In this document: positions 2,890 through 35,554 of the stretch, piece after piece
Layout: every line of letters begins with the position of its first letter
Position numbering within the stretch: the stretch's first letter is position 1
Source of the DNA: an uncultured Eisenbergiella sp.
Lineage (GTDB): Bacteria; Bacillota; Clostridia; Lachnospirales; Lachnospiraceae
Length of the DNA: 64,000 nucleotides
Assembly (NCBI GenBank): GCA_902492555.1
Contig: CABUMH010000001.1
Location: 40,960 to 104,959, forward strand
Reading direction: 5' to 3'
The notes under the pieces: model-generated
Database searches by the model: none
What the model saw: the letters and a program-made list of their open reading frames with translations, nothing else
Told to the model about the DNA's origin: nothing
Translations under genes and position numbers: made by a program

Positions 2890-2979
2890 GAAGAATGGAA
2901 TGGCCTGCTTCTAAATATCAGGGATATATTGTATTACGGAAATACTGTCATGATCAGATGAGGATAGAGGAGAAAGAAA

Positions 2980-4365
2980 ATGTTTTGTTCAAAATGTGGC
3001 AAGCCCATTCCTGACACGGCCAGGTTCTGCCCTTTCTGCGGAAGTATCTGCGGTGGGGGAACCATGGAAAATAAAATGGAAGGAGGATATGGAAATAAAG
3101 GTATTTCCGGCGGTGAGCCTGTTTCTTCCGGAGGAGAGGGGAAGGTGCGCCCTAAAGGACGAAGGAGGTTGTTAGGGCCGGTTCTCGCGGCGTCTTTTTC
3201 GCTCTTGGTCATAGCGGTTTTGGTTTTGTTTGGCGCGACTAGGCTGGTGGCGAACAGGCGGTATACGGAGCAGCTTTCCTTGGGGGAGAGGTATGAACAA
3301 GAGCTGGACTATGAAGCCGCCATGGCTGCTTATGAGGAGGCGATCCGGATTGACCCGAAGAGAGAGGATGCCTATTTGGCATTAGCAAGGCTGAATTTAG
3401 AGATGGGCGAATTTGATGCTGTGCAGGATGTATTAGCGGAAGCGCTGGAGCGAGCGGGAAATTCCGCAGAGGAAGAGGCAAACCGTCTGCTTCGGGAAGC
3501 AGAGGAAAGGGCGGAAGAAGCGGCGCAGGCAGAAGAAGTGGGGAGAGCGGAGGCTGATCAGATAGAAGAGGGAGATAATGGCGTGGCTGCCTCGGAGGAA
3601 CAGGAGGCCGTTTCATCCGGTTTTCCGGGCGAAGATGTGCCTTTCCCAGAGGCTGGAATGGAGGGAGAGACTGGACATATCGGGCCATATACCTTTTATC
3701 TTACTTCCTATGATTGGGATTGGTCGCTGGAAGGATATGGACAGTTTTTTGCGGTCGATCTGGAGTATCCGGTCTTTGAAGGGGATACGGAGGCGGAACG
3801 CGGGCTGAATGCGTATTATGAGACATGGCTGAATACCAAAAGGCTGGAATATGAAGAAGATGAATATTCTACGCCTAATCAGATCCTGAGTGATATCGAT
3901 GAAGGCTATGTATGGGAAGAAACCAGCGGCAGTGAGGATTATCAGGTGGAAAGTATGGCGATGACAAACGAGGTTTTCTCTGTTCTCAGGAGCAGCTATC
4001 TGTACTATCCGGGTGCGGCTCATGGCATGCCATTCAGGGAGACGGTTTATATCGACAGGCGGACAGGGGAGACGCTGGAACTGGAAGAATTTATCTCCAT
4101 TAGCAAAGAGGAACTGGATGAAAGGGTGAGGGATGCCTTTCGGGAAGTAGCGGCCCAGGAGCCGGAGGAATTTTCCTGGTCAATGGAATTCTTGGAGGAG
4201 ATCAGCGATTTTGCCGATTATAGCTATCTGGGAGAAGACGGCGTGATATTTTACAGGCCGCCTTATGAACTGGCCTCCTATGCCAGAGGCTTTGTAGAAA
4301 TTACGATTCCTTATGAAGACCTGGGGATGGGGGAAGTCGTGTATCTGGAAATTGAAACGCCATAG
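2980..4365 (+). CDS. zinc-ribbon membrane protein with TPR-like segment and C-terminal DUF4163/DUF3298 (RsiV-like) domain
   Basis: N-terminus MFCSKCGKPI…RFCPFCGS paralogous to the kinase N-terminus; TM LLGPVLAASFSLLVIAVLVLF; acidic coiled region; C-terminal PGAAHGM…RRTGETLELEEF pattern typical of DUF3298. Confidence 0.65.
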   Translation: MFCSKCGKPIPDTARFCPFCGSICGGGTMENKMEGGYGNKGISGGEPVSSGGEGKVRPKGRRRLLGPVLAASFSLLVIAVLVLFGATRLVANRRYTEQLSLGERYEQELDYEAAMAAYEEAIRIDPKREDAYLALARLNLEMGEFDAVQDVLAEALERAGNSAEEEANRLLREAEERAEEAAQAEEVGRAEADQIEEGDNGVAASEEQEAVSSGFPGEDVPFPEAGMEGETGHIGPYTFYLTSYDWDWSLEGYGQFFAVDLEYPVFEGDTEAERGLNAYYETWLNTKRLEYEEDEYSTPNQILSDIDEGYVWEETSGSEDYQVESMAMTNEVFSVLRSSYLYYPGAAHGMPFRETVYIDRRTGETLELEEFISISKEELDERVRDAFREVAAQEPEEFSWSMEFLEEISDFADYSYLGEDGVIFYRPPYELASYARGFVEITIPYEDLGMGEVVYLEIETP

Positions 4366-7732: not shown

Positions 7733-8956
7733 ATGAATGAAATGCAGTTTCAATATTTTTATGGCTCCCAGGCTGAACAGTTCAGTTTCTACAGGCTTCC
7801 CAAAGCTCTGATAATTGACCCCAAATTCAGCGGAATATCAAGTGATGCCAAAATTCTATACGGCGTCATGCTGGACAGGATGTCTTTATCCATTAAAAAT
7901 CATTGGGTGGATTTAAAAAACAGAGTCTATATTATATTTACATTGGAAGACGTAATGGAAACCTTTGCCTGCAGCGAAAGAAAGGCGAGCCGACTCATGA
8001 ATGAACTGGATTCCAGAACCGGTATCGGTCTGCTTGAAAAAAAGCGCCAGGGACTTGGGAAGCCCAATATCATTTATCTGAAAAACTTTATTTCCGAACC
8101 GGGCGCAACTGGTGCTTCAGTTGATACTGAATCTGATACGGAAGATCTGCAGGTCCAGAGTGGTCGGATTGTACAACTCCAGAGTTGCCAAAATTGGCAA
8201 CTCTGCGAAACTGAAGTGCCGGAGGGAAATCCCGAATCTTCCACGAGCCTTCCTCAAACTCCGGATGAACAGCCGCCTGATCCTCAAATTGATTCAAAAA
8301 ATCAGGTCTCCACATTCTATTCCGATACCCAGGCTTCTTCCCAGAGTGGCCAAATATGGCAACTCAAGACCTGCACGGATAAAGACGGTTTTGCTGCAAA
8401 AGAGTCTGGTTCGACTGAATCGTCCTGCCCCGTCCCCCAGACCTGTCAAATTTGGCAGGTCAAGAGTTGCCAAAACGGTCCGATCCAGAGTTGCCAAAAT
8501 TTACCACCTAATAAGACTGATAATAATTATACTGACACAAGCAAGACTGATTTTGTCTATCCATCTATCTATCCATCATCCGCCAGTCTTACTATGTCTG
8601 AATATACCCAGCTTATCAGGAAGCATGTCGAATACGACCTTTTAAAGCAGGAATACAGATATCCGGAAATTGCTTATCTGGATGAATTGATTGAGCTTAT
8701 GGCAGAAACTCTCTGCATTGTCAAAGGCCCCGTTAAAATCGGGAATAGAACATACTCGCCAGAGATCATTCAGGAACGGCTTTTGTGCTTGGACGCATCA
8801 CATTTCCGATATGTCATGGACAGTCTGCATAAAAACAGAACCAGCGTTCGGAATATTAAAGCCTATCTGCTCGCAGTACTTTTAAATGCGCCATTGACAA
8901 TAGACAACGCATATCGATCACAGGCAAATCACGATTTATATGCTGCAGACGAATAA
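7733..8956 (+). CDS. replication initiator protein (RepA_N-like N-terminus, repeat-containing linker, conserved C-terminal domain)
   Basis: N-terminus YRLPKALI…AKILYGVMLDRMSLS…VYIIFTLEDVME typical of RepA_N initiators of Firmicutes plasmids/CTns; internal QIWQ(L/V)K(T/S)C peptide repeats. Confidence 0.7.
   Translation: MNEMQFQYFYGSQAEQFSFYRLPKALIIDPKFSGISSDAKILYGVMLDRMSLSIKNHWVDLKNRVYIIFTLEDVMETFACSERKASRLMNELDSRTGIGLLEKKRQGLGKPNIIYLKNFISEPGATGASVDTESDTEDLQVQSGRIVQLQSCQNWQLCETEVPEGNPESSTSLPQTPDEQPPDPQIDSKNQVSTFYSDTQASSQSGQIWQLKTCTDKDGFAAKESGSTESSCPVPQTCQIWQVKSCQNGPIQSCQNLPPNKTDNNYTDTSKTDFVYPSIYPSSASLTMSEYTQLIRKHVEYDLLKQEYRYPEIAYLDELIELMAETLCIVKGPVKIGNRTYSPEIIQERLLCLDASHFRYVMDSLHKNRTSVRNIKAYLLAVLLNAPLTIDNAYRSQANHDLYAADE
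8154..8506. repeat. iteron-like degenerate direct repeats with internal dyad symmetry, inside the rep coding sequence
   Basis: CCAGAGTTGCCAAAATTGGCAACTC and variants (CCAGAGTGGCCAAATATGGCAACTC; CCTGTCAAATTTGGCAGGTCAAGAGTTGCCAAAAC; CCAGAGTTGCCAAAATTT) at about 8183, 8341, 8445, 8465, 8488; core TTGCCAA-AA-TTGGCAA is an inverted repeat. Confidence 0.6.
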
Positions 8957-9056
8957 TTTGAATATTCTGGCGCTACAGTACCCTGATTCCGGAAAACTGA
9001 GTACCGACGTTCCGGACGTGGATACCGGTATTGATTGGCTTGTCTACCTTGCTCGG

Positions 9057-9123
9057 TATTCTCAACAATGTCAAGCCCAGAGCCACTTTGTGGTGCGAAG
9101 CAGGCTTGACATTGTTGAGAATA
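9057..9123. promoter_or_regulatory. perfect 21-bp inverted repeat (TATTCTCAACAATGTCAAGCC … GGCTTGACATTGTTGAGAATA) with 25-nt spacer downstream of rep
   Basis: read directly; could be a terminator, oriT/sso-like element or operator. Confidence 0.5.
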
Positions 9124-9302
9124 CTGAGATAATGGTAGGCCCCAATCAGTCATTTTATTGCGGTACTCTTCGACCGGACTGTCGTCCATTTAGGACCGGA
9201 ATATTCATAATTGATTTAAAATTTCAGACGCATAATGATTCATATTTAACGGCAAGGACAGGAAAAGCATCCGCTTACCTGTCCTTCTGTTTTGCCAGAT
9301 TA

Positions 9303-9842
9303 ATGAAAGAAAGGGAAAAGATAATGAACAAAAAAGCGAATGAAAAAGAAAATTCCATTTACCATGACACTTGGATGCTTTTAAAGAAATACAGAGATGT
9401 TGTTTGGAGTCTTGAATTATCTGTCCAACAGGTACGCAACCAATTTCAAATCGAGTATGGAAGCACCGTGGACGAATTCCTTGATTCAATTTATTGCGCT
9501 GGAGCGGATATCGGAGGAAGCAATATTGAAAGGCATGCAAAAAGCATTGAACGAAGCAGAAATATGCTGCGGCTCCTTGATTCTTCGATTGAACTGCTCA
9601 GGAAAAAGCATAAATATGGAGAGGACTATTACTGGCTTTTATATTATACATTTCTCTCTCCTCAAAAACTCCCCAATGTCGAGGAAGTGATTGAAAAACT
9701 GAGGCCTCATATCAGAGACATCAGCAATAGAACCTATTACCGGAGACGCCGGGAAGCGATTGAAGCGTTGAGTTCCGTGCTGTGGGGCTATACTTCCCAG
9801 GATAGTCTGAATGTGCTGGAACATTTCTTTCCCGAACACTGA
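9303..9842 (+). CDS. putative transcriptional regulator with sigma-70 region-4-like C-terminus
   Basis: ORF opens at 8940 but coding-like sequence starts near ATG 9303 (MKEREKIMNKK); C-terminal …TYYRRRREAIEAL… resembles a sigma region-4/ArpU-like HTH; weak. Confidence 0.35.
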   Translation: MKEREKIMNKKANEKENSIYHDTWMLLKKYRDVVWSLELSVQQVRNQFQIEYGSTVDEFLDSIYCAGADIGGSNIERHAKSIERSRNMLRLLDSSIELLRKKHKYGEDYYWLLYYTFLSPQKLPNVEEVIEKLRPHIRDISNRTYYRRRREAIEALSSVLWGYTSQDSLNVLEHFFPEH

Positions 9843-10126
9843 TTCTATAAATGAAACCTTCAACCAGTAGCTTAACAAGAAATAAGGAATACAGGATTTC
9901 ATTAGCAATTGTATAAGCTTAACATTCTCAATGCTCAGTTTGTGAGAATACAGCAAGCAGCTTTTCCAATTAGAAAAACATTTTTTATATTAATGGTGAA
10001 TTAGAATAAAGATAAATAGAATATAACACTGTACACTTTCTATGGCCGAGAACTTATGCTACTCCGCGCAGAGGGTATCTCTGCCCGGAGCAGCCCAAAC
10101 CATATCTTATATCACAATGTTTCAGG

Positions 10127-10804
10127 TCACACAAAATCTGAAACATCCTTACTTCCTGAAATCAGACAAAGCTCCCCCTTCTTTACTTTGTACTTATTCA
10201 TAAAAAAATACTTTTCGTAAAAAAAATATATTTTCAAATAATCTACTCTATATATATTCTTATCGGATGGTTCGAAAATATATGTATTCTCCTCCATCAA
10301 TCTTGACAATCTGTTCAGGCCATCATCAACATCAGATAAAGAAATAATATAGTCATTCTCTTCGTCATAATTCGCTTCATATTGAAGAGGAACATTTATT
10401 AAATATTTCTCAATCCAATCAATATTATTTATATCACCTAATCTTCGCAAGAATAGTTCTAATATAAACAATTGCAGAAAAAAGCAATCATATTCAAATT
10501 CTTTTTCAACTTGATATTTCCAAAGATTTGTATGCTTTTCAATTTTTCCATTCCATCTTCCTTGCACGGTCTCATAAAATGAATCTAATATATTTCTTAT
10601 TTGTTCTAAAGCATTTCCACTATTACCTATTATCTCTTCGTATTCATTCAGCAAAGCAGTAAGATAGATAAGCTTTGCCAATCTATTACGTTCTACTAAA
10701 CCAGGTTGAAAATTACTGTCTTTCTCATATATAGAATTTTTAAATATTTGAATCAAATCCAAGTATTGATTAACGCACCATTGTACAAATATTTTTACTT
10801 CCAT
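10127..10804 (-). CDS. hypothetical protein, last gene of the SLATT-HD/GHKL-PRTase operon
   Basis: 243-aa ORF (start possibly 10858 or internal MEVKIF at 10804) overlapping the stop of the upstream PRTase gene; no recognisable motif. Confidence 0.5.
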   Translation of the reverse strand: MEVKIFVQWCVNQYLDLIQIFKNSIYEKDSNFQPGLVERNRLAKLIYLTALLNEYEEIIGNSGNALEQIRNILDSFYETVQGRWNGKIEKHTNLWKYQVEKEFEYDCFFLQLFILELFLRRLGDINNIDWIEKYLINVPLQYEANYDEENDYIISLSDVDDGLNRLSRLMEENTYIFEPSDKNIYRVDYLKIYFFYEKYFFMNKYKVKKGELCLISGSKDVSDFV

Positions 10805-10817
10805 ACCAGTCTCTCTT

Positions 10818-12572
10818 TCATTGAAAATAATTCTGTCTATAAATAAAGTCCATAACATCCCTTATATACTTCTTTTCTTTATTCAAATTTTTGCAAAGAA
10901 TGTATCGCTTATTTGCCAATTCACGTTGTAACACTTCCCCTTCCATAGCAAAATACTGGGAAAAAAATTGAAATGCCTCTGTTGAAATATACTTATTTTT
11001 AAAATAATTATTCTCTAAAAAATAAGTTTCTAAACTTTTAATAAATTTCCCATATTGCCTTTTATACTTTTCAGATACCATTTTCGAACAATTATAATAT
11101 GCATAGACTGCGGCATAAAAAACCGTAAGATCATGTTCGAACAGAATATCGCTGCTCTCTCCTAATTTAAAGCATCGTACAATTATATCTCCATCTTTTA
11201 TCACACTGTTTGACAGGACTCCGGTATCCAGTGCTTTTAAGATTATGCAGATAAGGCTTCTTTGAAACTGTGATTCATTGAGAAATGAACAATTTTCTTT
11301 TAAAAGGCTTTCTATCGTTTTCAAAGTTACAACCGCACTTGATGCATTGCCATTTTCATTGCTAGTGAGATGATCTCTTTTTTGTATTGCAAGCCACCCC
11401 ATAAACCATGACTCTATTTGGGGCATATCGAAATAATTTTTTTCATCTCTGCTAATATATTCACCTTGAGGTCTAGGTAATCGATTATAAAATTTTGAGA
11501 TTGAAAAATTATTGAAAATTCTATCTATACTTTTCGAAAACACTTCATTGAACCCAATTGGGGAAAGGTTTTTATATAATTCCATTCTTGTTCCCGTGAT
11601 AACTTCAGCATAATCTTGAAATACCTTTCCAATAAAGTAACTTAAAGCATAGACTATAGACCTATATAATGTAATATAATCTTCGTCATCTTTTTCGTCA
11701 CTATGTTTTTTGTAAATATAATCTAAAAAGGGGGTTTCTTGAAATAAAGAAATAAAATACTTCCAGCATTCTTTATATTCAACAGAACGCAACATAGCAA
11801 AAGGAGTAAAGCGACAAAATACCTTTGATTCTCCCTGCTCGTTTTCCTTTTTTTCATAACGGCATTTTATGACCAAACTTAGAAGCGCTTCTCCCATTAC
11901 GTTCTTTAAATATTTATTATCATATATGAAGAAACCATTATCGAATGATATATCTTTAATCTTTACTTTATAATCCGTAAACACCCAACCAGCATTATTT
12001 TCATTTATTAACTTCTCAAATGCTTCCTGGCAAATCTGAACTTCCTTAAATACAGGCAAATCAATGACATAAGAATGCCTACTTTCTTGAATCGCCTGTA
12101 ATTCTTTGATTACAAATTCCGACATTTGCGAATAAGTGAATACTTCTGCAAACATTCTTTTATATTCTTGAAAATCTGATTTATCAAAAAAACATGTGAG
12201 AGCTTTTGGCGTCATGGCGAATACGGCAATTGAAATATTCGGATTTAAAACTTTATCTCTTATTCTTTCAATAATCCGTAATAAAGTTTTTCCAGTATAG
12301 AGTGTATCATCTATTAATAATACTTTTTTACCATGTTCAAAGATAGAAAAATCCATCTCCTTTAAAATATCCCTATCTCTTAATTCTTGAACATTTAATT
12401 TATTATAGGGTATTCTATCCTCTTCCTTTTTATGCTCTTGAATTATTTTTGTATAAAAATAGCACTTTCGTGAAATGAAAATAAAATAACTATATTCATC
12501 AGCCATTTCAACTAATTTCATGTAAAATTTTAAATATCTCTCATCTATCAGTCTGGGATCTATCATTTTCAA
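10818..12572 (-). CDS. phosphoribosyltransferase (PRTase) domain protein with about 440-aa uncharacterised C-terminal extension
   Basis: type I PRTase PRPP-binding motif KKVLLIDDTLYTGKTLLRII in the first 140 aa; remainder unmatched. Confidence 0.65.
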   Translation of the reverse strand: MKMIDPRLIDERYLKFYMKLVEMADEYSYFIFISRKCYFYTKIIQEHKKEEDRIPYNKLNVQELRDRDILKEMDFSIFEHGKKVLLIDDTLYTGKTLLRIIERIRDKVLNPNISIAVFAMTPKALTCFFDKSDFQEYKRMFAEVFTYSQMSEFVIKELQAIQESRHSYVIDLPVFKEVQICQEAFEKLINENNAGWVFTDYKVKIKDISFDNGFFIYDNKYLKNVMGEALLSLVIKCRYEKKENEQGESKVFCRFTPFAMLRSVEYKECWKYFISLFQETPFLDYIYKKHSDEKDDEDYITLYRSIVYALSYFIGKVFQDYAEVITGTRMELYKNLSPIGFNEVFSKSIDRIFNNFSISKFYNRLPRPQGEYISRDEKNYFDMPQIESWFMGWLAIQKRDHLTSNENGNASSAVVTLKTIESLLKENCSFLNESQFQRSLICIILKALDTGVLSNSVIKDGDIIVRCFKLGESSDILFEHDLTVFYAAVYAYYNCSKMVSEKYKRQYGKFIKSLETYFLENNYFKNKYISTEAFQFFSQYFAMEGEVLQRELANKRYILCKNLNKEKKYIRDVMDFIYRQNYFQ

Positions 12573-12598
12573 TATGCCTCCACCTGTTTCGATTTGCC

Positions 12599-15500
12599 TT
12601 ATAAAGTTAGCCTCTTGAATTCAACCGTTAGTAACCTGCGATATGCTTTTCTTATTGCCTCCAGGTCATAAGAACCAGATTCTTTTTGATTTTTATAAAC
12701 CCACAAACATAAACGATCAAAAGAAGGATCATCCTGTACAACATTGATGTATTCCTGCAAAGTAAATTTCGTATATTCAGAATGACATTCATGCATGGTC
12801 TTTTTCATACGGTTAATTTTCGCTTCTATAGCAGCATTTATCGGATGAATCACATAGTAAACGCCCTGTTGTTCTGGAATAAAAGGAAGCTTTTTGACCA
12901 AAAGAGCCTCTTGGCCTTCCTCAGCCTTTACAACCAACTTATACTCTCGCTCACCTGAGTTGAAGGTTTTAGACATGTCGTTTATTTCTCTTTTAATACC
13001 CGGAATTTCTGAATCATTTCTATTCAAGATTCTAAATGCACCAAAATTAGGCTTCCCTGTATCTTTCTCAACTACATTTGTTGTTTTCAAACGTTTCAAG
13101 ACCATTTTATCATCTTGAATAAGATAGTAATTCAATACTAGCCTTATTTTTATATCGTCTATTATAACGATTTTCTCCACTAATTCTTTAAAACCATCAC
13201 TATTTTCATCTATAGTATAATTGATTTCTTCTTCATTTTCTGGAATTGCTAATATAATATCTCCTGTCCGTAAACCATGAAACAGATATTCATACAGGTA
13301 ATATTCCCGTTTCCAAACTCCTTCCGTTATCGTCCATACATATAGCCCATCCGACATAAAAGCATTACTATTATCTATGCTTTCTTCTAGCACTTTATTA
13401 CATATAAGCGTCATAGGGAATAATAGTTTAGTCCGTATTCTTTTATCATACTTCTCCATAAAATAAAGCCTTGCCTTAAAATAAGCTTGAGTATATTTCT
13501 TAACCAAAAATTGCTGCTGAATAGCATTATCAAAAAAACGATTGCGGCTAACTAATAAACATTCTTCCACTTTTTTCCCCATCACATCTAGCAGAATACA
13601 TGTAAGATAAGGATTTTTTCTCCAATCTTCAACTAAGTATTTCCGCGAAGTCATAGGAACATTAACATTTTTATATGCAGCCATAAAACTAACTTCATCA
13701 TCCGCTGATAAATCAAAGGAATAAAAAGTTTCACTCATATCATCCCAAAGTCGTAATGTTCCTTTATCCATATTAAAATTCATGTAAAGATTATCCGCGG
13801 CCAAGCCCAGCTTCTTAACTTCTGAAGCAAATACACGAAGAACCTCACATTCTTCTGCAGTTCCTGGCATAATTGAATTTTCTATTTCATCCTCTTCTTC
13901 AGAGAATTGAAATATTTGTGCATAATCTTTGTACCTTGGTATTATTTCCCTTCCTGTATCTTTCTCGCTTTCCACAAAAAAATACTTGCTTTGTATGGTT
14001 TCTGTATACTTCCCTTGGCCCGTATGCAAATAAATATTAATAGGAAAAAGACTGTTTTTAAAATGCTCTTTCACATAATTTATAACAATCTTCCAGACTA
14101 TCAATAAGCGATTTTCATAGGAAAATAAATCCAGTTTTCTCCATTCTTCCTTTCCGCTGTATTTATCCAAGATACTATCTGCGTCAATTTCCGAAAATTT
14201 AATAACAAGATGAATTCTAGTCCCCTGGTCTACCTTCTGTTGTCCATACTCAACTAATATATTATTGGGTTTTTCATCTTGACTAAGCGTTATTTTAAAT
14301 GCCGGATTATTCTTCGCTTTTGTATAAATCTCTACTTTATTTGTTACCATGAATGCAGACTGTAAACCAATCCCAAATCCCCCAGTTGGCCTTAACCACT
14401 GTCTCATCTCCCTAATTGTATTCGTAAAATTTGTACGTTCTCTCCAACCAGTTCCAATATGTGAAATGCTATTAATACCGGTTTCATCTATTCCAATGCC
14501 TCTATCCTCAATTTCTATAACAAATTGTTCTTCGTCAATTATTCCTTTTTTATCTCTGTATTCTCGAATATAAATTTTTACAGGGTAATTATCATAAGCT
14601 TCTTTTCTAAAGTCAATTGGCTTTATTTTATCTCTTTCAACTTGGGGATCGATTAAATATTTTTCTCTTTCGCCCCCCTGCTCTAAATCATTCCAGAGCA
14701 TTATTCTAAGGGCATCAAAAGAATTCTGAACGTATTCACGAATAAAATCCAAAGAAGAGTCATACAGATTATTACCAGTAAAGAGCTCCAAAAGTTTATT
14801 CCGATTCACCTCGAAATCCCTTGAGAACTCACTGCTAAACTCTTTATTTTTATGGAGTATTATCAGCTCAGGAATTCCCATATGGCACCCCTGAAGACTA
14901 CATGGAGCTATTTCCTGCCAGCGAGTTATCATATTAATAATTTCACTTTTTAAATCGTCAAACCACATTAAGCTGATTTTGCACACTTCAAAATCATCTG
15001 ATTTCGCTGTTACTTCTATTTTTTCCGGCTTTATTAAGAGGTGTTCTATAGCCTGATGCTTCTTATAGTGTGTAACGCTTACATGAGGGAGTTCGCCAAA
15101 ATGTTTCATAGCAAAAATATCAAATCGATTATTATCCAAGTCTAACAGATCTCCAACTCGTAACAATACCGCAAGAAATTGCGGATGCACGTAATCATCC
15201 TCAAATCCATCACATATTAGACTTATTTTTTTTATATCTTCCTGCCCAGCTGTATGTAATGCCACTATTTGGCCAAGTATTCCACATAATCTGTCGATAT
15301 ATACAATATTCCCCCTTCGATCCCATCTATTGAAAAATTCCTTACTTCTATTTCCGTGTTTTTTTCGAATATATTCTGACATTAAGCAAGTAATTTCTTT
15401 CCGAAACTCCAAAGGCCATGAATCATATTCATCCCACTCAAAGTTAGGTATTTCCAGTTTTTCGCTACTTATTCCTCCCTGGTGTTTTACAAAAGCATCC

Positions 15501-15931
15501 AAATATGTATAATGACGTGCCGCTTTACCGATTTCTTCGTCTAAAGAATCCCTTTCTCTTTCGACAAAATCAAGAAATTCTTCATTTTTCCATAAGTCTT
15601 TCAATTCATAATACTCAGTAGACATACCTATATCATGCGCATAAGCTGCATTTAAAAGAATCCATAAATCGCCTATCCCAAGCAGTTCAACCCGTTCTTT
15701 ACCCAAAAACCGTTCAATTGCTCTCAGTATATTGATAGAGTGTGAAGCATCGTGCCTGCTATAATTCATGAATTCAAAGATTGTCGTTTTTGTTCTTTCT
15801 TCATATTGATTCTTATTATAGATCCAATCACTCCAAAGTTTATTGCCCAAGGCAGATCTTTGACTTTTCAATTTAAACTGCTGCTCAATATATGTATCTA
15901 CCTCATACCTCCAATTCTGATTTTCCTGCAT
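12599..15931 (-). CDS. 1110-aa multidomain protein: N-terminal HD phosphohydrolase-like domain + central GHKL/HATPase_c ATPase + long unknown C-terminus
   Basis: HD signature RHDASHS…AAYAHDIGM…LLRVGDLLD; Bergerat ATP-binding motifs REYVQNSFDA (N-box), EDRGIGID (G1), GGFGIGLQSAF (G2); 27-nt gaps to both flanking genes. Confidence 0.6.
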   Translation of the reverse strand: MQENQNWRYEVDTYIEQQFKLKSQRSALGNKLWSDWIYNKNQYEERTKTTIFEFMNYSRHDASHSINILRAIERFLGKERVELLGIGDLWILLNAAYAHDIGMSTEYYELKDLWKNEEFLDFVERERDSLDEEIGKAARHYTYLDAFVKHQGGISSEKLEIPNFEWDEYDSWPLEFRKEITCLMSEYIRKKHGNRSKEFFNRWDRRGNIVYIDRLCGILGQIVALHTAGQEDIKKISLICDGFEDDYVHPQFLAVLLRVGDLLDLDNNRFDIFAMKHFGELPHVSVTHYKKHQAIEHLLIKPEKIEVTAKSDDFEVCKISLMWFDDLKSEIINMITRWQEIAPCSLQGCHMGIPELIILHKNKEFSSEFSRDFEVNRNKLLELFTGNNLYDSSLDFIREYVQNSFDALRIMLWNDLEQGGEREKYLIDPQVERDKIKPIDFRKEAYDNYPVKIYIREYRDKKGIIDEEQFVIEIEDRGIGIDETGINSISHIGTGWRERTNFTNTIREMRQWLRPTGGFGIGLQSAFMVTNKVEIYTKAKNNPAFKITLSQDEKPNNILVEYGQQKVDQGTRIHLVIKFSEIDADSILDKYSGKEEWRKLDLFSYENRLLIVWKIVINYVKEHFKNSLFPINIYLHTGQGKYTETIQSKYFFVESEKDTGREIIPRYKDYAQIFQFSEEEDEIENSIMPGTAEECEVLRVFASEVKKLGLAADNLYMNFNMDKGTLRLWDDMSETFYSFDLSADDEVSFMAAYKNVNVPMTSRKYLVEDWRKNPYLTCILLDVMGKKVEECLLVSRNRFFDNAIQQQFLVKKYTQAYFKARLYFMEKYDKRIRTKLLFPMTLICNKVLEESIDNSNAFMSDGLYVWTITEGVWKREYYLYEYLFHGLRTGDIILAIPENEEEINYTIDENSDGFKELVEKIVIIDDIKIRLVLNYYLIQDDKMVLKRLKTTNVVEKDTGKPNFGAFRILNRNDSEIPGIKREINDMSKTFNSGEREYKLVVKAEEGQEALLVKKLPFIPEQQGVYYVIHPINAAIEAKINRMKKTMHECHSEYTKFTLQEYINVVQDDPSFDRLCLWVYKNQKESGSYDLEAIRKAYRRLLTVEFKRLTL

Positions 15932-15958
15932 ATAACTGTCCTCCCTCTTTCGTCTACT

Positions 15959-16429
15959 TTATCCGCTATTACTTACACTTTTAGTTTCTTGAATATATTC
16001 CTTCCACCGCGAGCCTTCCTCTTTGATTATTTTTTCACAATTTATAACAAATACTTCAGAAGGATCTTCTATGCCATTATATATTCCTTTTTTAGTACAA
16101 TAGAACCTCTGTTCACTACAAAGCTGATCACAAGTTTGTCTATAACTTTTCCATTTATCTTGTGCATGTGAAATACCCAAGAAGCCTTCGGCAATGAGAG
16201 CGCCGGCACTTAATAAAGCTACTATACCATTACTTAATAATGGCGATTCCATTATTACGAACACAGGGATTAGAGCCGTCATTACAATCCGGCTTCCAGA
16301 GAGTATGTAGTACACCTTCTTATAAAATTTACTCCTTCTGTTATAGTAAATTACTAATTTCCCGATAATGTTGCTATACTCATCCCCATCAGGATTTCCA
16401 AAATACTCTAGGATACCCTCGCTTGACAT
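15959..16429 (-). CDS. SLATT-family (DUF4231-like) two-TM small protein, first gene of the operon
   Basis: YYNRRSKFYKKVYYILSGSRIVMTALIPVFVI…IVALLSAGALIAEGFLGI…WKSYRQTCDQL…YC pattern matches DUF4231/SLATT 2TM effector domains. Confidence 0.55.
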   Translation of the reverse strand: MSSEGILEYFGNPDGDEYSNIIGKLVIYYNRRSKFYKKVYYILSGSRIVMTALIPVFVIMESPLLSNGIVALLSAGALIAEGFLGISHAQDKWKSYRQTCDQLCSEQRFYCTKKGIYNGIEDPSEVFVINCEKIIKEEGSRWKEYIQETKSVSNSG

Positions 16430-17275
16430 GAAATCTTTCCCTTTCCTTTTTGGTTAGAAGTAATAGTTTTCTGCTTAACAGACAGCAGCGAAAACAAGGT
16501 TCAAGCTTCTCTATTGTTCATTATTCAGCAAGAACTGAAATTACAAAAAGAACAAGTTATATATTCAAGCAGACATTTAAAGCCCCCTTAAATTATATAA
16601 TATCATATTGCAACACTAAAGTCACTCATTCCCTTTTATTTTCATACAAAATAAAGAAACAAAAAAAGAATTCAGATAATATAATTTCCAATTTTTACTC
16701 GAACATAGTTTGTGAAGCCATCTATATTTCTACGGAATAATGGTTTATCATTATTGTTTAGCCGTCTTGTTCTTCATTCCAATTTGCTTGATTGTGGAGT
16801 TTTACTCAATTTAATGTAAGAAATAACCTACAGAAAGAACAAGTCCCAGAGAGTTTCCCGAAAAATCGCGTCCTCTGAGACCTCTAAAAACATATTTATT
16901 ATATCAAAGTTTATGATGATTCAAATAAAGGATGCCATAAGCTCTACAGCATGTTTCCTTACATGCTTGTCTATTACAAGCATTATACGTCCGAATTCAT
17001 TTAGGACAATGCGCCGCTAGAACCACTGTTTTCTATCAAACTTGTTCAAGGGGAAAGACTCTCGCAGACAGGTATAACATCGGGTTGCACCTTCCAGGAC
17101 ACAATCGGCCCAGCCCGGAGCATCCGGTTAGGAAACGGTGCAGTAATTCTTCGGCAGATTGAATATTCCGTTTACAAAGTGCACACTTTTCGCTGATCAG
17201 GTGCATCCCTTCCGGTAAGCCAGTGCAGGTTTTCCGGAAGGGAATGCAGTTTAATCATAATGGAACCTTGTCAAC

Positions 17276-17629
17276 TTAATACCGGCCGTCGTCGATCCCC
17301 TTTGCAAGCTGTACCATGGAGTCTGTGAACTCTTTGAAGGCCATGGGGTCTCCCCCATCATAACAGATCCGGGAAAACTCCTGATATGCCAGGCTGTCAT
17401 AATGCGGCATATCCAGATCTGAGAGGATATCAACTGTTGTGATCTGTTTCCGCTCGGGATCCGTTTCCATGGCAAACCGGTATCTCGCCCGGACCGCCTC
17501 AGCCTTAAGGTGCTGGATATCCCTGACCATTGCGTCCACCAGTTCCAGAAAGGAACGGATCAGCTCGCAGTTATCGGCTTCCGGACATTCATCCCATGCG
17601 TTGTAGCCGTCATACAGCATCGCCGTCAC
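17276..17629 (-). CDS. hypothetical protein within the IS21-like segment (passenger or decayed ORF)
   Basis: 117-aa ORF, GC-rich like the IS, no motif recognised. Confidence 0.3.
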   Translation of the reverse strand: MTAMLYDGYNAWDECPEADNCELIRSFLELVDAMVRDIQHLKAEAVRARYRFAMETDPERKQITTVDILSDLDMPHYDSLAYQEFSRICYDGGDPMAFKEFTDSMVQLAKGIDDGRY

Positions 17630-18398
17630 CTGCCTCTCCGGCTCCGGGGGCTTTCACGCCATGGCGTTCCCGCATGGATACAGCTCCCTCGATCAGGACC
17701 TCATAAGCATTGGGACGGATCCTGTCAATGACAGCGTCACAGAGGGTCTCATACTCCGGTGACCCGATCCGTTCATGCCAGCCGTCCGGTTCAAACTGGG
17801 TGCAGAAGATAATGGATCCTCGCTCTGCCCGTGGCTCAATGACCTCAGGCAGGTCGTTCGCCTGCTCATTCGTCATCGGAGTGAGCAGGAATTCATCTAT
17901 GATCAGCAGGTCGGCTTTCTGGTACGAGCGGATCATTTTCAGGTAAGTGCCCTCTCCTCGCGCGACAGCCAGCCCGTTCAGCAGGTCCGGGATCCGGACA
18001 TACCGGACGGTAAAACCGTTCCGGCACGCGGCAACACCCAGGGCATTGGAAAGATATGTTTTCCCGCTGCCGGATGCCCCCATGATGATGATATGGCGGC
18101 TGTCGCGGATGTAGCCGCAGCCTGATAGGCGGAGCAGTTTCCCGCGGTCCAGTTTCCGGTCTGCATGGTATTCGATATCCTCCATACATGCGCCCGGATA
18201 CCGGAACCCCGCGCTGCGGATGAGCCGGGCAAGGCGGTTGTTCCTGCGCGATTCCCATTCCCTGTCCACAAGGATCCCAAAGCGGTCCTCAAAGCTGAGC
18301 CCCTGGAGGCCGCCGGTGCGGCACTGGTCTTCGAACGCGCCTGCCATGGCGGAAAGCCGCAGCTCGCGGAGCTTGTCGATCGTAGACTGTACGGTCAT
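17610..18398 (-). CDS. istB: IS21-family helper ATPase IstB
   Basis: Walker A GASGSGKTYLS, Walker B LLIIDEF; DnaC/IstB-like length. Confidence 0.85.
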   Translation of the reverse strand: MTVQSTIDKLRELRLSAMAGAFEDQCRTGGLQGLSFEDRFGILVDREWESRRNNRLARLIRSAGFRYPGACMEDIEYHADRKLDRGKLLRLSGCGYIRDSRHIIIMGASGSGKTYLSNALGVAACRNGFTVRYVRIPDLLNGLAVARGEGTYLKMIRSYQKADLLIIDEFLLTPMTNEQANDLPEVIEPRAERGSIIFCTQFEPDGWHERIGSPEYETLCDAVIDRIRPNAYEVLIEGAVSMRERHGVKAPGAGEAGDGDAV

Positions 18399-19578
18399 GC
18401 CTGGACACCTCCCTTCTCACGGGCCGCGCGGCGTGTCAGGCCATAGCTGCCGGTTGTCCGGGGCGGGGTACCGTTTTTTACCTTATCCTGTCCGTTCTGG
18501 AGGATGGTGGTGATATTTTTCAGGCTCGGGCTCGGCGTATAGGAAAGTGCTTTGGCACAGGCTGCCTCCAGCCTGGCCGGTGTAAACCGGTCGGCGGGCT
18601 TCATCATGGACGCGCAGCTTTTATATCCCTGCTGGGGAGTCCTGTGCGTGTGGAGGAAGGTACGGACAACGATCCCTGTTGACGGACCGATATCTTCCGC
18701 CCACTGCTGAAAGCTCTCTTCATTATAATTAAGGTAACGCCGGTGGGCTTCCGGCATATGCTCCGGTACATAGACCGGATCCGCGGTATTAAAAACCCTC
18801 ACATGGGACGCGATCCTCTGGTTATGGAAAATCTCCATGTATTTCTCCGTTGTCCGGATATCAACCTTCCTGCCGATGTATTCACATGGTACGGAGTACC
18901 GACAGTCGCCTACTGTGACCAGGTAATCCGGCTGGACCGTTTCCGAGGACCATACGGCTGTCTCATACGGCGTGGATGGAAGCGGCAGGAGAAATGCCTT
19001 TTCTTCTTCCTCGAATGCAGAGAGCCGGCAGCCTTTCCTCTTTTGAAATGGACGGCTGTTGAACTCATCCAGTTTGATACGGATGGCCTCATTCAGTTCC
19101 TGAAAAGAAAAGAACTTATCATTGCGCAGGGATGCCACGATCCAGGTTGACAGGACGCCGACCAAGCCCTCGTCAGAGGCCTTGTCCTTCGGGGAGACCG
19201 GGCGGGCAGGGACAATGGCCGTTCCATAGTATTCCGCCATCTCCTGGTAAGAGCGGTTGAGGATCAGCTCCGCGCGGGTGTTCTTAACGACCGCAACCTT
19301 TGCATTGTCAGGCGTAAGGATCCGGGTAACGCCTCCAAAGTAGCTGTACGCATGGATGTGCGCCTGGATCCAGCTGGCGGTCTTCATGTCGGGGACCGCT
19401 TCCGCATAGCTGTACATACTGCAGGGGAGGCAGGCGACAAAGACATACGCGGTGACAGGCTCCCCTGTGATGCTGTCAGTAACATCCAGGGTGCTGCCGC
19501 CCAGTCCACTTCCATGAGTTCACCGGGTTTCCTGCTGATCCGCAGCGTTGCCTTTTGGGAGGCAGTGTAGACAAACAC
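18395..19578 (-). pseudogene. istA: IS21-family transposase IstA, frameshifted and 5'-truncated
   Basis: 340-aa ORF carries the C-terminal IstA region (…AYSYFGGVTRILTPDNAKVAV…); the integrase-core start (PGELMEVDW) lies in another frame (19384..19578); no HTH N-terminus upstream. Confidence 0.7.
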
Positions 19579-19960
19579 CGCATCATCCGATTGATACTGA
19601 TTTATACCACAAACGCGACCAACGCAACCTCACTCTCACTCAAAGCAAGATAATAAGGTATTATCCTCCATCTATTTGTCATTTTATCATACTTCTATCA
19701 CCAATAAAAGAAATATTTAGCTTTCTTCATATATTATTACCATATTTGTCCATTTTCTGAGTTTATACAACAAATCCGTTTAATGAACATAATAGAATGA
19801 TTACTACACATACTATTTAATGATACATTAATCTTTTAGTTTCTCAATTCTATTCCAATTTCGGTATATTATTTTCATATTCACGCTTTTTTTCCGATTC
19901 CGGAATTTTTATTGCTTAAAATATAGTAATATGGTAAAATATACACTAGGAGGTGGACTA

Positions 19961-21184
19961 ATGGTAAAACGTACTGAATATCTAAAGAAGCTGGAAATGT
20001 GGCAGGACGAGCAGGTCATCAAAGTTGTTACCGGCATACGCCGTTGCGGCAAATCTACACTCCTGGAGCAATTTCAGCAACATTTGCTGAGTAAAGGTGT
20101 AAAAAATGAGCAGATCCTTTCTCTTAATTTTGAAGAATTAGAGAATGAACCCCTGCTTGATTACCAGACTTTATATAAATATCTGGTTTCCAGACTCTGT
20201 CCAAATCAAACGACATACATTTTTCTGGATGAAATTCAAAAGGTTCCTGCATTTGAAAAAGTTGTGGACAGTCTCTATGTTAAGAAACATGTTGACCTGT
20301 ATATCACCGGCTCCAATGCATATATGCTTTCCGGAGAACTAACGACGCTGCTGTCCGGTCGTTATGTGGAGATATCGATCCTCCCTCTCTCTTTCCGCGA
20401 GTATTGCCAGCTGCAGCCTGGGATTGATACGGAGGTGATCTTCTCTTCCTACCTTCAAGATGGCGGCTTCCCGTATATTGCTTCAATGAACCGGTCAAAG
20501 GAAAAAACAGATATGTATCTGGAAGGGATCTATAATACCATAATCATAAAAGATATTGAGGATAGACAAAGACGAAGGGAAGCTGATCCAAACAAACGCA
20601 GGGTAACAGATATTGCCCTCTTAAAAAGCATTGCGAAGTTTCTGGCAAGCTCTGTCGGAAATCCCATTTCGATAAAAAGTATTACAGATTATATCATTTC
20701 TTCCGGTCGTAAAGTATCGCAAAATACAATAAGCGATTATATTGAGGTATTGACCGAGGCATTTGTTTTCTATCCGGCCGAACGCTTTGATATCCTAGGG
20801 AAGCAGCTTATGAAAACTAACCAGAAATTGTATATTGTCGATCTGGGTATCCGTCGCTATCTGTTGCCGCGAAGATCCTATGACCTAGGATTTTCTCTGG
20901 AAAATGTAATCTATTTGGAGTTGCTTCGCCGCGGCTATTCGGTGAACATCGGAAAGGTCGGGAACACAGAGGTGGATTTCGTGGCAAAGAGAAATGACCG
21001 CTATCATTATTTTCAGGTAACGGCTTCTCTGCTTGAGTCATCTACCTTTGAAAGGGAAATGAAGCCTTTGCGGAATATCCGGGATAATTATCCCAAAACC
21101 ATTTTGACGCTCGACCAGATGACACCTGGCAACTATGACGGCATCGAAGTTATTAATGCCGTGAACTGGCTACTTGGAGAATAA
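19961..21184 (+). CDS. AAA-superfamily ATPase with DUF4143-type C-terminus
   Basis: Walker A GIRRCGKSTLL, Walker B YIFLDEIQ; architecture typical of COG1373-like ATPases; ORF opens at 19931. Confidence 0.7.
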   Translation: MVKRTEYLKKLEMWQDEQVIKVVTGIRRCGKSTLLEQFQQHLLSKGVKNEQILSLNFEELENEPLLDYQTLYKYLVSRLCPNQTTYIFLDEIQKVPAFEKVVDSLYVKKHVDLYITGSNAYMLSGELTTLLSGRYVEISILPLSFREYCQLQPGIDTEVIFSSYLQDGGFPYIASMNRSKEKTDMYLEGIYNTIIIKDIEDRQRRREADPNKRRVTDIALLKSIAKFLASSVGNPISIKSITDYIISSGRKVSQNTISDYIEVLTEAFVFYPAERFDILGKQLMKTNQKLYIVDLGIRRYLLPRRSYDLGFSLENVIYLELLRRGYSVNIGKVGNTEVDFVAKRNDRYHYFQVTASLLESSTFEREMKPLRNIRDNYPKTILTLDQMTPGNYDGIEVINAVNWLLGE

Positions 21185-22387: not shown

Positions 22388-23029
22388 TCATATAGAAAAA
22401 ACTTCATCTATAATCTCAAACAATCTGTCGGTTTCTATATCGCCATTAAATAAAACTAATGCTACTGTACTTGTATACTCTGGCAACTTTTTATTAATAT
22501 ACCATAGCAACCGATGATTCAAAAAATCTTCACACAATTTTTGCACATTTATTGAGGTTGCTTCCATACTATATCTCATTTTATCTGGGTGCTTACATGG
22601 ATGATTAATTTTACACTGACAAGGCTTACAAAGCCTACAGCTTCCACTTAATAAGGAGTATCCATCTGTATATGCTTCTATAATTCGGGCATATTTTTCA
22701 ATAAGTGATTTCAAAGTAACATTTGCAGCTTTTAGCGCTACATACTTATTTTTTATGTCAGCATAATCTTTCATTACTGTAGAAAAACAAATTAAATAAG
22801 CAGATGTATATTTTTTTTGTATACTTAAAAATGATTTTGAAAATGGTGGACAGCTCCATTTTCTTCCAAAATTCACACATCCTTCCTCACATTCTTTTCT
22901 TAACCGTTCCTCTTCAATATAATCACAAAGCACAGAAGTATCAGTAATCAGTTTTTCTTTTATCTTGACAGAAATTGTTCTGTTGGCCAACATCTTCTGT
23001 TTTTCTAAATATACAATTTCTTCTTCCAT
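22388..23029 (-). CDS. Cys-rich predicted metal-binding protein (DUF2284-like)
   Basis: CVNFGRKWSCPPF and CRLCKPCQCKINHPCKHP motifs; 6-nt gap after the radical SAM gene. Confidence 0.45.
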   Translation of the reverse strand: MEEEIVYLEKQKMLANRTISVKIKEKLITDTSVLCDYIEEERLRKECEEGCVNFGRKWSCPPFSKSFLSIQKKYTSAYLICFSTVMKDYADIKNKYVALKAANVTLKSLIEKYARIIEAYTDGYSLLSGSCRLCKPCQCKINHPCKHPDKMRYSMEATSINVQKLCEDFLNHRLLWYINKKLPEYTSTVALVLFNGDIETDRLFEIIDEVFSI

Positions 23030-23035
23030 ATCAGA

Positions 23036-24001
23036 TTATACCCCTGCCACTCTCCTCATTTTTCTTTGAACAGGGCATTTTTCTCCACAGCCACTAAGTT
23101 CCATTTGACGCTCAACAAACTTTCTTTCATATTTCAAATACTCCGAATGATAATAAATATCCTCTAAAGACTTGTTATAAATAGAATCCGGCTTAATTAT
23201 TCTATTATTTTCGTCAGTTAATTGAATATACTTGAATGCTTCACATCCGAATACCTTTCCATCATAACGGATGCACAGTTTATTCTTTCCGGCATAGCAA
23301 CAATAATCGGAATCCTCTCGCTGTAAAGGAATGCCAATTCTTATTTTATTATTATTGATTGCTTCAAGTTTTAACTTCAATTTCTCATTCTCATCTGTGT
23401 CCAAAACTAATTCCCCAATATTATTAGCCGCTCTTCCGTGAGGAACCAATCCCAAAAAACTAACTTTATTAACACCTGCTCTTTCTGCAAATTTTACAAC
23501 ACTATCTATTTCATCCAGATTTATTTTAGTTGGAACAAAATGAATTTCCGTATAAATACCTACATTTTGAGCTTTGTTAATACTCTCAAACACAAATTTC
23601 TGATATCCGGATGTTCCCATAAATTTATTATATGTAGTTTCATTTATAGCCGGTAAATCAAAAATTATTTTATCCACTGCTACACTATATAATTGTTGTA
23701 ATAACTCCCGCTGAATACTATCGACCCGTCCAGCAATGTTCAATATAATTCCACTAGTATAAATATATACCTTAATGCCTTTAGATTTTGCATAATGTAC
23801 AATTTCTAATAATCCGTCATGCAAAAAAGGTTCTCCACCAGAAATACTTAAAACTTCAGTATTTAACTTTGACGCACTATCAATTATTTTTTTTACTTCC
23901 GCAGTTTCTATTTTTAAAGTACAATTAATGTCAGAATTAGATGAACAATGCAAACATCTATTTGGACACTTATGTATTATTTCAATTGAAATTTGTTTCA
24001 T
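23036..24001 (-). CDS. radical SAM enzyme with C-terminal SPASM/twitch-like Cys cluster
   Basis: CPNRCLHC (Cx3Cx2C) at residues 12-19, SISGGEP glycine motif, C-terminal CCYAGKNKLC…GCEAF…CGEKCP; 4-nt overlap with the upstream HD gene. Confidence 0.8.
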   Translation of the reverse strand: MKQISIEIIHKCPNRCLHCSSNSDINCTLKIETAEVKKIIDSASKLNTEVLSISGGEPFLHDGLLEIVHYAKSKGIKVYIYTSGIILNIAGRVDSIQRELLQQLYSVAVDKIIFDLPAINETTYNKFMGTSGYQKFVFESINKAQNVGIYTEIHFVPTKINLDEIDSVVKFAERAGVNKVSFLGLVPHGRAANNIGELVLDTDENEKLKLKLEAINNNKIRIGIPLQREDSDYCCYAGKNKLCIRYDGKVFGCEAFKYIQLTDENNRIIKPDSIYNKSLEDIYYHSEYLKYERKFVERQMELSGCGEKCPVQRKMRRVAGV

Positions 24002-25731: not shown

Positions 25732-26171
25732 ATGGCGAACCTCCATTGCAAACTTTTTCTTACTCGCTACTAACCTCAAATAATATCTGATATGCCTTAA
25801 TTTCCACAAAGTATGTGTAACTCAATTATGCCAAGCTACTCCCTAGTAACTTGGCAATTGATTACTTACTATGCAGTAATTACATACAGAATTTCATACT
25901 ATTTCCCATTATTTTATATAGCAATTTTATTTTTTTGCAATGTAATTATCAGAAAATTTCTCTCTATTTCAAAAAATTCGGTAAAAATTCTGCAGTCAAA
26001 ACAAACTTAAAATCGAAATCACTTTTTTATTCTATATCAGATATTTTTATGTGGAGTATCAAGATAAGATGCTAGTTTTATTATAGCAAAATGAGGAATT
26101 TATTACAATCATTTTGCAGCGAAAAACTAGCAATAATCCAAGCAATTCAGACCATACGACCGTTCTGTTAT

Positions 26172-29285: not shown

Positions 29286-29295
29286 GGGGATACAA

Positions 29296-35373: not shown

Positions 35374-35554
35374 GGTACAGTTTCCTCCTCCGCCCGGTTT
35401 TCTTCCTTTTTTTATCATAACATATCCAGTTTTACGAATCAACAAATATTATTATTGCGTACACACAACCGATCAAATTCATCGCGCAACACTCTGTTAT
35501 GGACAAATATGTTGTATCACCACATAATAAGGGCAAAAAAGGAGGAGCATCCAT

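Follow-up and report, generated by a model that had tools for sequence, protein, structure and literature searches.

A 64,000-nucleotide (nt) stretch of contig CABUMH010000001.1 from an uncultured Eisenbergiella sp. (hereafter the window) contains a four-gene operon, here g1 to g4 in the order of transcription, whose conserved core is g2 alone. This large protein joins an HD domain to a GHKL ATPase. A phosphoribosyltransferase (PRTase) gene, g3, is its partner in one clade, the SLATT gene g1 is optional and g4 is lineage-specific. The locus probably serves conflict or defence in one form or another. The more specific reading that we favour, at a probability of about 0.4, is that it is modular abortive-infection cargo, combining an ATP-gated HD phosphodiesterase with a PRTase/winged-helix effector and a SLATT effector.

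The operon and its four proteins

A sequence-only reading of this stretch had placed four same-strand genes side by side in an AT-rich island, and all four open reading frames (ORFs) are present on the minus strand. We confirmed them as a tight four-gene operon at 10127-16429. Gene coordinates below are from the ORF list, and domain boundaries in g2 and g3 follow secondary structure and aligned lengths rather than inspected coordinates.

16430-16950, minus strand: AT-rich non-coding leader of about 500 nt, 5' of g1, presumed promoter region
15959-16429, minus strand: g1, SLATT/DUF4231 protein, 156 amino acids (aa)
12599-15931, minus strand: g2, HD-GHKL core protein, 1110 aa, soluble
14939-15766, minus strand: HD-CE domain of g2, residues 56-331 (Pfam PF24391)
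14132-14827, minus strand: Bergerat-fold GHKL ATP-binding domain of g2, residues ~369-600, HSP90-like
13652-14131, minus strand: putative transducer/S5-like second domain of g2, residues ~601-760, approximate
12602-13651, minus strand: C-terminal region of g2, residues ~761-1110, no recognisable fold
10818-12572, minus strand: g3, PRTase plus winged-helix protein, 584 aa (or 582 aa)
12078-12572, minus strand: domain of g3 with a type I PRTase fold, residues 1-165, containing the phosphoribosyl pyrophosphate (PRPP) loop V83-LLIDDTLYTGKT-L97
11163-11426, minus strand: winged-helix unit of g3, residues ~383-470, within a larger helical/winged-helix region
10127-10804, minus strand: g4, 225 aa, soluble, fold not recognised (a 243-aa reading is possible from 10858)

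The intergenic gaps of 27 nt between g1 and g2 and 26 nt between g2 and g3 agree with the spacing of 26-28 nt in the sequence-only reading; the overlap that it saw between g3 and g4 probably does not stand. All g4 homologues begin at Met19 of the longer reading, which puts the start at 10804, leaves a 13-nt gap after g3 and gives g4 a probable real extent of 10127-10804, so that the 41-nt overlap is probably an artefact. The start of g3 is either a TTG or an ATG two codons downstream, the choice of the gene callers (582 aa). Purine-rich sequences resembling Shine-Dalgarno sites lie ahead of g1, g2 and g3. GC content is 0.30-0.35 across 10-17 kb against 0.40-0.58 on either side, as expected of the proposed AT-rich island.

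No credible ORF on the operon strand was found in the leader at 16430-16950, where promoter matches are at consensus level only (for example 16625-16597, with an extended -10 element), and an Rfam search of 9800-17300, including the leader, gave no match. A terminator scan detected no intrinsic terminator after g4. An imperfect GC-rich hairpin without a T-run (GCTGCTCCG...CGGAGTAGC, inner stem GGCAGAG/CTCTGC), not called by that scan, lies at about 10058-10094 on the minus strand, 30-70 nt past the g4 stop codon.

The N-terminal part of g2 matches the Pfam family HD-CE (PF24391) with 140 bits against a cut-off of 27 (E 1.4e-40). Because this domain is already catalogued in Pfam, the g2 family is partly known. 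Its layout, H60xxxH64 ... H99D100 ... D261/D264, is that of metal-dependent phosphodiesterases, and H60, H64, H99, D100, H192, H226, H249, D261, D264, N267, R269, K291 and H292 are invariant across 20-24 divergent relatives. Queried with the single sequence, the Protein Data Bank (PDB) yielded no relative of the HD region. The family profile alone reached one set of sequence relatives, the class I cyclic-nucleotide phosphodiesterases, at marginal E-values of 0.002-0.05 over about 84 residues, an alignment that places H60xxxH64...H99D100 on the HNxxH...HD signature. Both groups thus have the catalytic, metal-binding histidines of the pattern HxxxH ... (~35 aa) ... HD, whereas the extra invariant histidines and the GDLLDLDNNRF motif of g2 are specific to its family. 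We take the phosphodiesterase match as a lead on the probable catalytic layout, without a family assignment.

The second enzymatic part of g2 has the Bergerat fold and motifs I-IV of GHKL ATPases. The motifs REYVQNSFDA, DRGIGID and GGFGIGLQS are present, and the key residues E399/N403/D406, D476xGxG480, G518-G522 and G570-T571 are invariant in 20 divergent homologues. Against the PDB, this domain finds the N-terminal domains of HSP90, TRAP1 and GRP94, with E-values down to 4.6e-15, and its motifs (REYxQNxxDA, DxGIG, GGFGIG, GT) are closest to those of HSP90. An AlphaFold model of residues 360-1110 has a predicted local distance difference test score (pLDDT) of 85, and the N-terminal and middle domains superpose on TRAP1 and GRP94. 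Unlike HSP90 and HtpG, however, g2 is fused to an HD domain, island-borne and rare, and the HSP90 C-terminal domain was not detected in it. The NCBIfam HtpG/HSP90 models score only 43.9 bits (E 1e-11) against equivalog cut-offs of 371 and 455, and align over model positions ~4-177 only; we rejected g2 as an HSP90 orthologue on the basis of this low score and N-terminal match. Conserved in the C-terminal region are D782, R796, a YIISP motif (P1030) and, close to its end, WVY..Q. Because the HD ligands and GHKL motifs I-IV are invariant in 20-24 divergent members, both enzymes of g2 look active.

g3 has the core fold of a PRTase, and its AlphaFold2 model has a pLDDT of 85 and a predicted template modelling score of 0.84. 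The PRPP loop VLLIDDTLYTGKTL is kept throughout the g3 family, and the segment VLLIDDTLYTGKT fits the type I pattern of four hydrophobic residues, two acidic residues and xx[TS]Gx[TS]. That pattern is retained in 42 of 42 g3-family sequences that cover it, the 43rd row being a C-terminal fragment, and among the 21 nearest sequences D88, D89, T90, G94 and T96 do not vary. The domain is a divergent member of the superfamily or a PRTase-like domain. PyrR and PurR are among its sequence and structure matches. Farther along, the modelled order of secondary-structure elements in residues 383-470 is that of a textbook winged helix. Among PADLOC models, the best match of g3 is the weak one to the retron type III-A PRTase (E 1.6e-4). 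The ShosT model matches only at E 0.047, and no ShosA match was found.

g1 scores 73.1 bits against the NCBIfam model SLATT_1 NF033634 (cut-off 41, E 1.9e-20) and 60.5 bits against Pfam DUF4231, PF14015 (cut-off 24.7, E 2.4e-16); the Pfam SLATT_1 model gives 17.7 bits, under its cut-off of 26.3. Residues 41-87 form a hydrophobic block on the Kyte-Doolittle scale, split by a short polar turn, which fits two transmembrane helices. g1 also matches PHROG 7395 (E 2e-17), the sole PHROGs match among the four proteins. SLATT was reportedly defined by Burroughs et al. (NAR, 2015). We presume that g1 is a membrane effector and an optional component of the HD-GHKL family. Elsewhere, SLATT proteins are demonstrated or predicted membrane effectors, as in the experimentally studied DRT10 (bioRxiv 10.64898/2026.04.29.721553) and in systems covered by PMC7159879.

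g4 has no match in Pfam, PADLOC or PHROGs. A profile search of the PDB returned PCID2 at a marginal E-value of 0.03, which we disregarded as a sign of kinship. Its relatives amount to 12 representatives among 1.84 billion proteins. In the loci compared, g4 occurs only in the closest sub-clade, a lineage-specific accessory of a tiny family.

The domain content proposed from sequence alone therefore survives for the two-transmembrane SLATT/DUF4231 protein g1, for the HD phosphohydrolase-like N-terminus and GHKL ATPase of g2 and for the PRPP loop at the start of g3, and g4 is as unassignable as it had seemed. The exception is the stretch of about 440 aa in g3 that was considered unassigned, which is where the winged-helix region lies.

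Distribution of the gene family

To establish which genes form the unit, we called ORFs in the fetched loci (designated here by L numbers) and mapped profiles of g1 to g4 on a tree of g2 N-terminal halves. Homologues of g2 fall into 406 clusters, nearly all of about 950-1230 aa with an HD-CE domain. A pattern scan of 185,579 species-representative genomes, one per species, found at least 136 g2 relatives, a lower bound in that the scan relied on two peptide patterns. These relatives come from Bacillota, Bacteroidota, Campylobacterota, Myxococcota, Spirochaetota and Pseudomonadota, and from one archaeal bin. Most family members are solo genes, one of them WP_012740570 of Lachnospira eligens; RefSeq labels relatives 'ATP-binding protein' or 'hypothetical protein'. 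A phage protein collection gave one weak unannotated match, and a plasmid protein collection gave four distant relatives under the same two labels as in RefSeq; both collections are almost devoid of the family. Neither result weighs for or against a defence role.

g3 adjoins g2 in 20 fetched loci as well as in the window and in L096/L097, which amounts to about 17 independent loci. All lie in one clade of the g2 tree, whose sole member without g3 sits on a 3.3-kb contig. When g3 homologues were looked up independently, every one stood beside an HD-CE gene. The order is g2-g3 in the sub-clade of the window, and g3-g2 or g3-(small ORF)-g2 in sister lineages. The pairwise distances of g2 track those of g3 (r 0.87, Mantel p 2e-4), and the gene set recurs in the same or permuted order where the proteins are only 30-55% identical. 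The two genes co-diverge.

At least 12 loci have a SLATT gene beside the g2 homologue. Its place can be at either operon end: it is upstream in L010 and the window, and downstream in L097 and L001. SLATT-g2 pairs without a PRTase gene form a separate clade and also occur in L028 and L032. As an optional addition, SLATT occurs in two separate clades, and it is missing from most loci of the PRTase clade. In sister lineages, unrelated small ORFs fill the slot equivalent to that of g4. The sequence-only reading had treated the four genes as a unit. Its SLATT, HD and PRTase calls hold in profile searches, but four-gene co-conservation does not: g4 is replaced, SLATT comes and goes and g3 is confined to one clade.

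The small ORFs of the sister lineages, 150-250 aa in length, always lie between the PRTase and HD-GHKL genes (L007 5250-6014, L012 7200-7850, L014 4658-5365, L015 7322-7945, L017 7343-7984 and L034 7284-7742). Their products are barely related to one another; the slot is kept and the sequence is not. We rejected homology between g4 and these ORFs (hmmsearch near zero, hhalign probability 3%).

The neighbours of the family are largely those of defence and mobile regions. Complete type I restriction-modification operons stand beside g2 homologues in six loci, and the 124 immediate neighbours include five ATPases of the AbiLi/PtuA/AriA type, four HsdS proteins, ResIII, SNF2, integrases, relaxases and recombinases. 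RefSeq neighbours of the relatives include an 'Abi family protein' and an AAA-ATPase/UvrD pair.

In three independent loci, HD-GHKL/PRTase genes are inserted beside surface-polysaccharide genes (L001 1-5805, L007 144-3071, L097 9124-13737), whose products include epimerases, nucleoside triphosphate (NTP) transferases, DegT, glycosyltransferases and YfhO. The recurrence points to variable glycan loci as a repeated landing site.

The mobile element around the operon

In the window, a ParA/ParB/RepA_N module, with a RepA_N/DUF6017 replication initiator, lies directly downstream of the operon. On the other side are an IS21-type insertion sequence and a tyrosine integrase, together with the conjugation-associated genes PcfJ and YodL and a RecD2-like helicase gene. 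Because maintenance genes stand on one side and these mobility genes on the other, we conclude that an integrative or conjugative element carries the operon as cargo, within a stretch where defence-type genes abound. As the sequence-only reading had noticed, insertion-sequence, integrase and defence-type genes lie nearby: IstB/IstA, the tyrosine integrase, the PADLOC candidate PDC-S01, a viperin-like radical SAM gene and a gene for a SIR2-like protein. The protein set recurs on contigs from human-gut metagenomes, of up to 140 kb; a search of plasmids for near-identical DNA found none.

17610-19417, minus strand: IS21-type IstB/IstA genes, of an IS21 element at 17276-19417
19931-21184, plus strand: AAA_14/DUF4143 ATPase, 417 aa, PADLOC candidate PDC-S01 (E 7e-156, nearly end to end)
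22388-25809, minus strand: second low-GC (~30%) operon, three genes
30385-35445, minus strand: AT-rich pair (27-30% GC), a 1049-aa protein followed by a 528-aa protein
35555-36523: tyrosine integrase

The IS21-type element (GC 54-58%) separates the operon from the next defence gene. It encodes an IstB of 262 aa, whose end is overlapped by a 117-aa ORF, and an IstA-like protein of 340 aa that matches the C-terminal domain of Mu transposase only and may be truncated or mis-started. The operon at 22388-25809 encodes a 603-aa protein without a family match, a radical SAM/SPASM enzyme weakly like viperins of prokaryotes (PADLOC pVip, E 1e-13) and a metal-binding DUF2284 protein. This operon may form a further defence or peptide-modification module. 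In the pair at 30385-35445, the 1049-aa protein has a weak AAA match only, and the C-terminus of the 528-aa protein is similar to SIR2 domains that are associated with Argonaute (E 1.7e-8). On the opposite strand, just upstream of this pair, are two glycosyltransferase genes (28206-30405).

A 300-aa ORF at 8940-9842 on the plus strand, without a Pfam or PADLOC family match, converges on the end of the operon; every related contig keeps it along with the RepA_N gene. At the start of the window (412-4365, plus strand), an 825-aa Ser/Thr protein kinase is followed by a 461-aa zinc-ribbon/TPR/DUF3298 protein, and both genes are kept beside the element on related contigs.

Proposed function and relation to described systems

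The distribution, composition and neighbours described above are those of a conflict gene family with a self-sufficient HD-GHKL core. Since most members are solo genes, g2 must carry both sensing and effector functions. Under the abortive-infection reading, the HSP90-like GHKL ATPase and transducer-like domain of g2 would act as an ATP-driven dimerising switch, cued by invader nucleic acid or a phage protein. The switch would license the fused N-terminal HD domain to hydrolyse phosphodiester bonds in nucleic acid or nucleotides. g3, a co-inherited second effector, may attack the pool of PRPP or nucleotide precursors once g2 releases or activates it. SLATT would serve as an optional third effector that permeabilises the membrane, and g4 as a lineage-specific adaptor or inhibitor. 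We infer the division into sensor and killer roles, the substrates and the physical contacts between the proteins.

Several points weigh against this proposal. The defence assignment draws on genomic context and analogy, and several loci lie in polysaccharide-synthesis clusters, which are variable regions yet not classical defence islands. The HD profile comes nearest to cyclic-nucleotide phosphodiesterases and reaches no nucleases, so a nucleotide substrate may fit at least as well as DNA or RNA. For g3, the Pfam Pribosyltran model gives 23.1 bits, under its gathering threshold of 26.3; PRTase-fold domains can be non-catalytic ligand sensors, as in PurR and PyrR; and a regular-expression search found no PNNxP in g3, the end of the retron-specific motif Gx14PNNxP. 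Finally, PADLOC-DB v2 holds no named system for any of the four genes, g3 having weak PRTase matches only, but a recent name may exist.

Alternative explanations differ mainly in what they make of the HD and PRTase domains. If the system acted by direct, non-suicidal restriction, g2 would be an ATP-gated clamp nuclease that destroys invading DNA in the manner of VcSduA, the winged-helix part of g3 a kleisin-like loader or closer of the clamp, and the PRTase domain a ligand sensor. This fits a MORC/MutL-like module and a JetB match, but kleisins partner SMC rather than GHKL ATPases and the likeness comes down to generic winged-helix units. Moreover, the HD-CE domain is more like a small-substrate phosphodiesterase than a known nuclease, the strict conservation of the PRPP loop points to catalysis or, at the least, to binding of PRPP, and the presence of a SLATT pore protein speaks for suicidal output, in this operon at least; we consider restriction of this kind unlikely. 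More doubtful again is a cyclase-free nucleotide signal, whereby the g3 PRTase would make a PRPP-derived signal, the HD domain of g2 would make, trim or degrade it, and SLATT would be a signal-gated killing pore. Profile searches detected no SAVED, CARF, SLOG or STING sensor domain, and most members have neither SLATT nor PRTase and thus lack a producer or receiver of any signal. The direct pairing of SLATT with g2 in the PRTase-less clade cuts both ways: it links the pore to the HD-GHKL protein, but those pairs have no signal maker, and SLATT is absent from most loci of the PRTase clade. The conservation of the PRPP loop throughout the g3 family is in line with signal synthesis. So is the match of the HD-CE profile to class I cyclic-nucleotide phosphodiesterases alone in the PDB, with HNxxH...HD aligned, although that match is marginal and covers only 84 residues. 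The fuller version, that a PRTase-made or HD-converted nucleotide-like messenger under the HSP90-like switch opens the SLATT pore upon infection, we find more improbable still; if true, bacterial immunity would gain a second messenger of a new chemical class, and an HSP90-type ATPase would have a new use, in immune sensing.

Two further alternatives set anti-phage defence aside. The operon might be an addiction or stabilisation module of the toxin-antitoxin kind, or an exclusion module, serving the mobile element. It does stand directly beside ParA/ParB/RepA_N maintenance genes, PRTase, SLATT and HD domains are all potential toxins, and the small, fast-evolving g4 could be an antitoxin; ShosTA, moreover, doubles as a toxin-antitoxin and defence system (PMC11961720), and the two roles are not mutually exclusive. 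However, chromosomal solo genes and members in variable restriction-modification, Abi or polysaccharide regions, away from partition genes, account for most relatives, and a 1,110-aa ATPase with two enzymes is atypical of toxin-antitoxin systems, which leaves this explanation with a slender chance. The least probable, to our mind very remote, is a housekeeping role in nucleotide metabolism or its regulation, with g3 a PRPP-sensing regulator like PurR or PyrR, g2 an HD nucleotidase with a chaperone-type ATPase and g1 a membrane protein. PyrR and PurR are indeed among the matches of g3, and the GHKL part of g2 is closest to HSP90 chaperones, but scores fall far under the equivalog cut-offs for HtpG, PyrR and HPRT. 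The patchy, rare occurrence of the family, the low-GC island, the mobile and defence neighbours and the association with SLATT also argue against it.

If the abortive-infection reading is right, the system could matter for phage-bacterium dynamics in the gut, because human-gut Clostridia and their mobile elements commonly carry the HD-GHKL family. As to whether it has been described before, the sequence-only reading knew of no system that combines HD-GHKL, PRTase and SLATT, and it fares well: none of the four genes belongs to a named PADLOC system, and no description of the combination was found in the literature searched, a set outside which the SLATT-defining paper lies. The same literature yielded no mention of HD-CE (PF24391) or PRTase-CE and no association of SLATT with a GHKL ATPase.

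By analogy, the nearest validated counterpart of g2 is VcSduA (Shedu I-D/paraMORC3), where a GHKL ATPase, its middle domain clamp-like, governs the nuclease fused to it, both activities being needed for phage protection (PMC12137116). The MORC/paraMORC families, GHKL plus S5, associate more widely with nucleases and restriction-modification systems (PMC2292703). Like VcSduA, g2 combines a GHKL ATPase, a second domain that may be clamp-like and a hydrolytic effector domain in one large protein, and its family too is often solo, patchily distributed and found in defence contexts. The effector domain is, however, an N-terminal HD-CE domain in g2 and a C-terminal DUF4263 nuclease of the PD-(D/E)xK type in VcSduA; the GHKL part of g2 is HSP90-like by sequence; and g2 has an extra C-terminal region of ~350 aa and, in one clade, a PRTase partner and SLATT. 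Pfam and PADLOC searches gave no DUF4263/Shedu match in any of the four proteins. If our reading is correct, g2 would represent a new family in the immune class of GHKL ATPase plus hydrolase (MORC/paraMORC/Shedu I-D), widespread in Bacillota, Bacteroidota, Campylobacterota and other phyla, that uses an HD phosphodiesterase in place of a PD-(D/E)xK nuclease and whose ATPase is HSP90-like, not MORC-like.

The effector of Retron-Eco11, of type III-A3, consists of a PRTase-like domain plus a winged helix at the C-terminus, and acts by PRPP depletion and abortive infection; the Gx14PNNxP motif of retron type III-A PRTase effectors (cluster 67_3) is described in the same study (PMC12746101). g3 has this PRTase plus winged-helix layout, because its C-terminal 440 aa contain the winged-helix region: a type I PRTase fold at the N-terminus, bearing a PRPP loop, is followed by winged-helix units. 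It differs in its length, roughly double, in an additional beta-rich middle domain and helical regions, and in its partner, a GHKL ATPase here and reverse transcriptase with multicopy single-stranded DNA (RT-msDNA) in the retron. No reverse transcriptase domain was found in the operon or its immediate neighbours, nor any Rfam-known noncoding RNA at 9800-17300. Such an effector, if g3 works as proposed, could be driven by a wholly different sensor, which would separate its effector role from its retron role.

Other PRTase toxins offer a looser comparison. ShosT is a PRTase toxin in defence, and ShosTA, Rst_DprA-PRTase and DS-32 (DefensePredictor) share with this operon a PRTase domain that, as proposed for g3, is a toxic effector on purine/PRPP metabolism in phage defence; their architecture and partners differ, and the operon has neither a DprA/SLOG-type antitoxin nor a NADAR partner. 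Similarly, systems with SLATT (CBASS-type, GAP1 GTPase, DRT10/UG17) place a small two-transmembrane SLATT protein, a presumed pore-forming suicide effector, beside a large sensor or enzyme, as here, but the operon lacks their CD-NTase/SMODS, SLOG, TIR, GTPase and reverse transcriptase components. A CD-NTase/SMODS cyclase in particular was found neither in the four proteins nor in the flanking ORFs. Coupling of SLATT to a cyclase-free sensor, if borne out, would make the question of SLATT activation directly testable.

The operon thus falls outside Shedu, retron III-A, CBASS and ShosTA, and its proteins belong to SLATT, to HD-CE, to the GHKL superfamily and, by fold and loop, to the type I PRTase superfamily. 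It is built from known modules, a GHKL-gated hydrolase defence protein with borrowed effectors, and is not categorically new.

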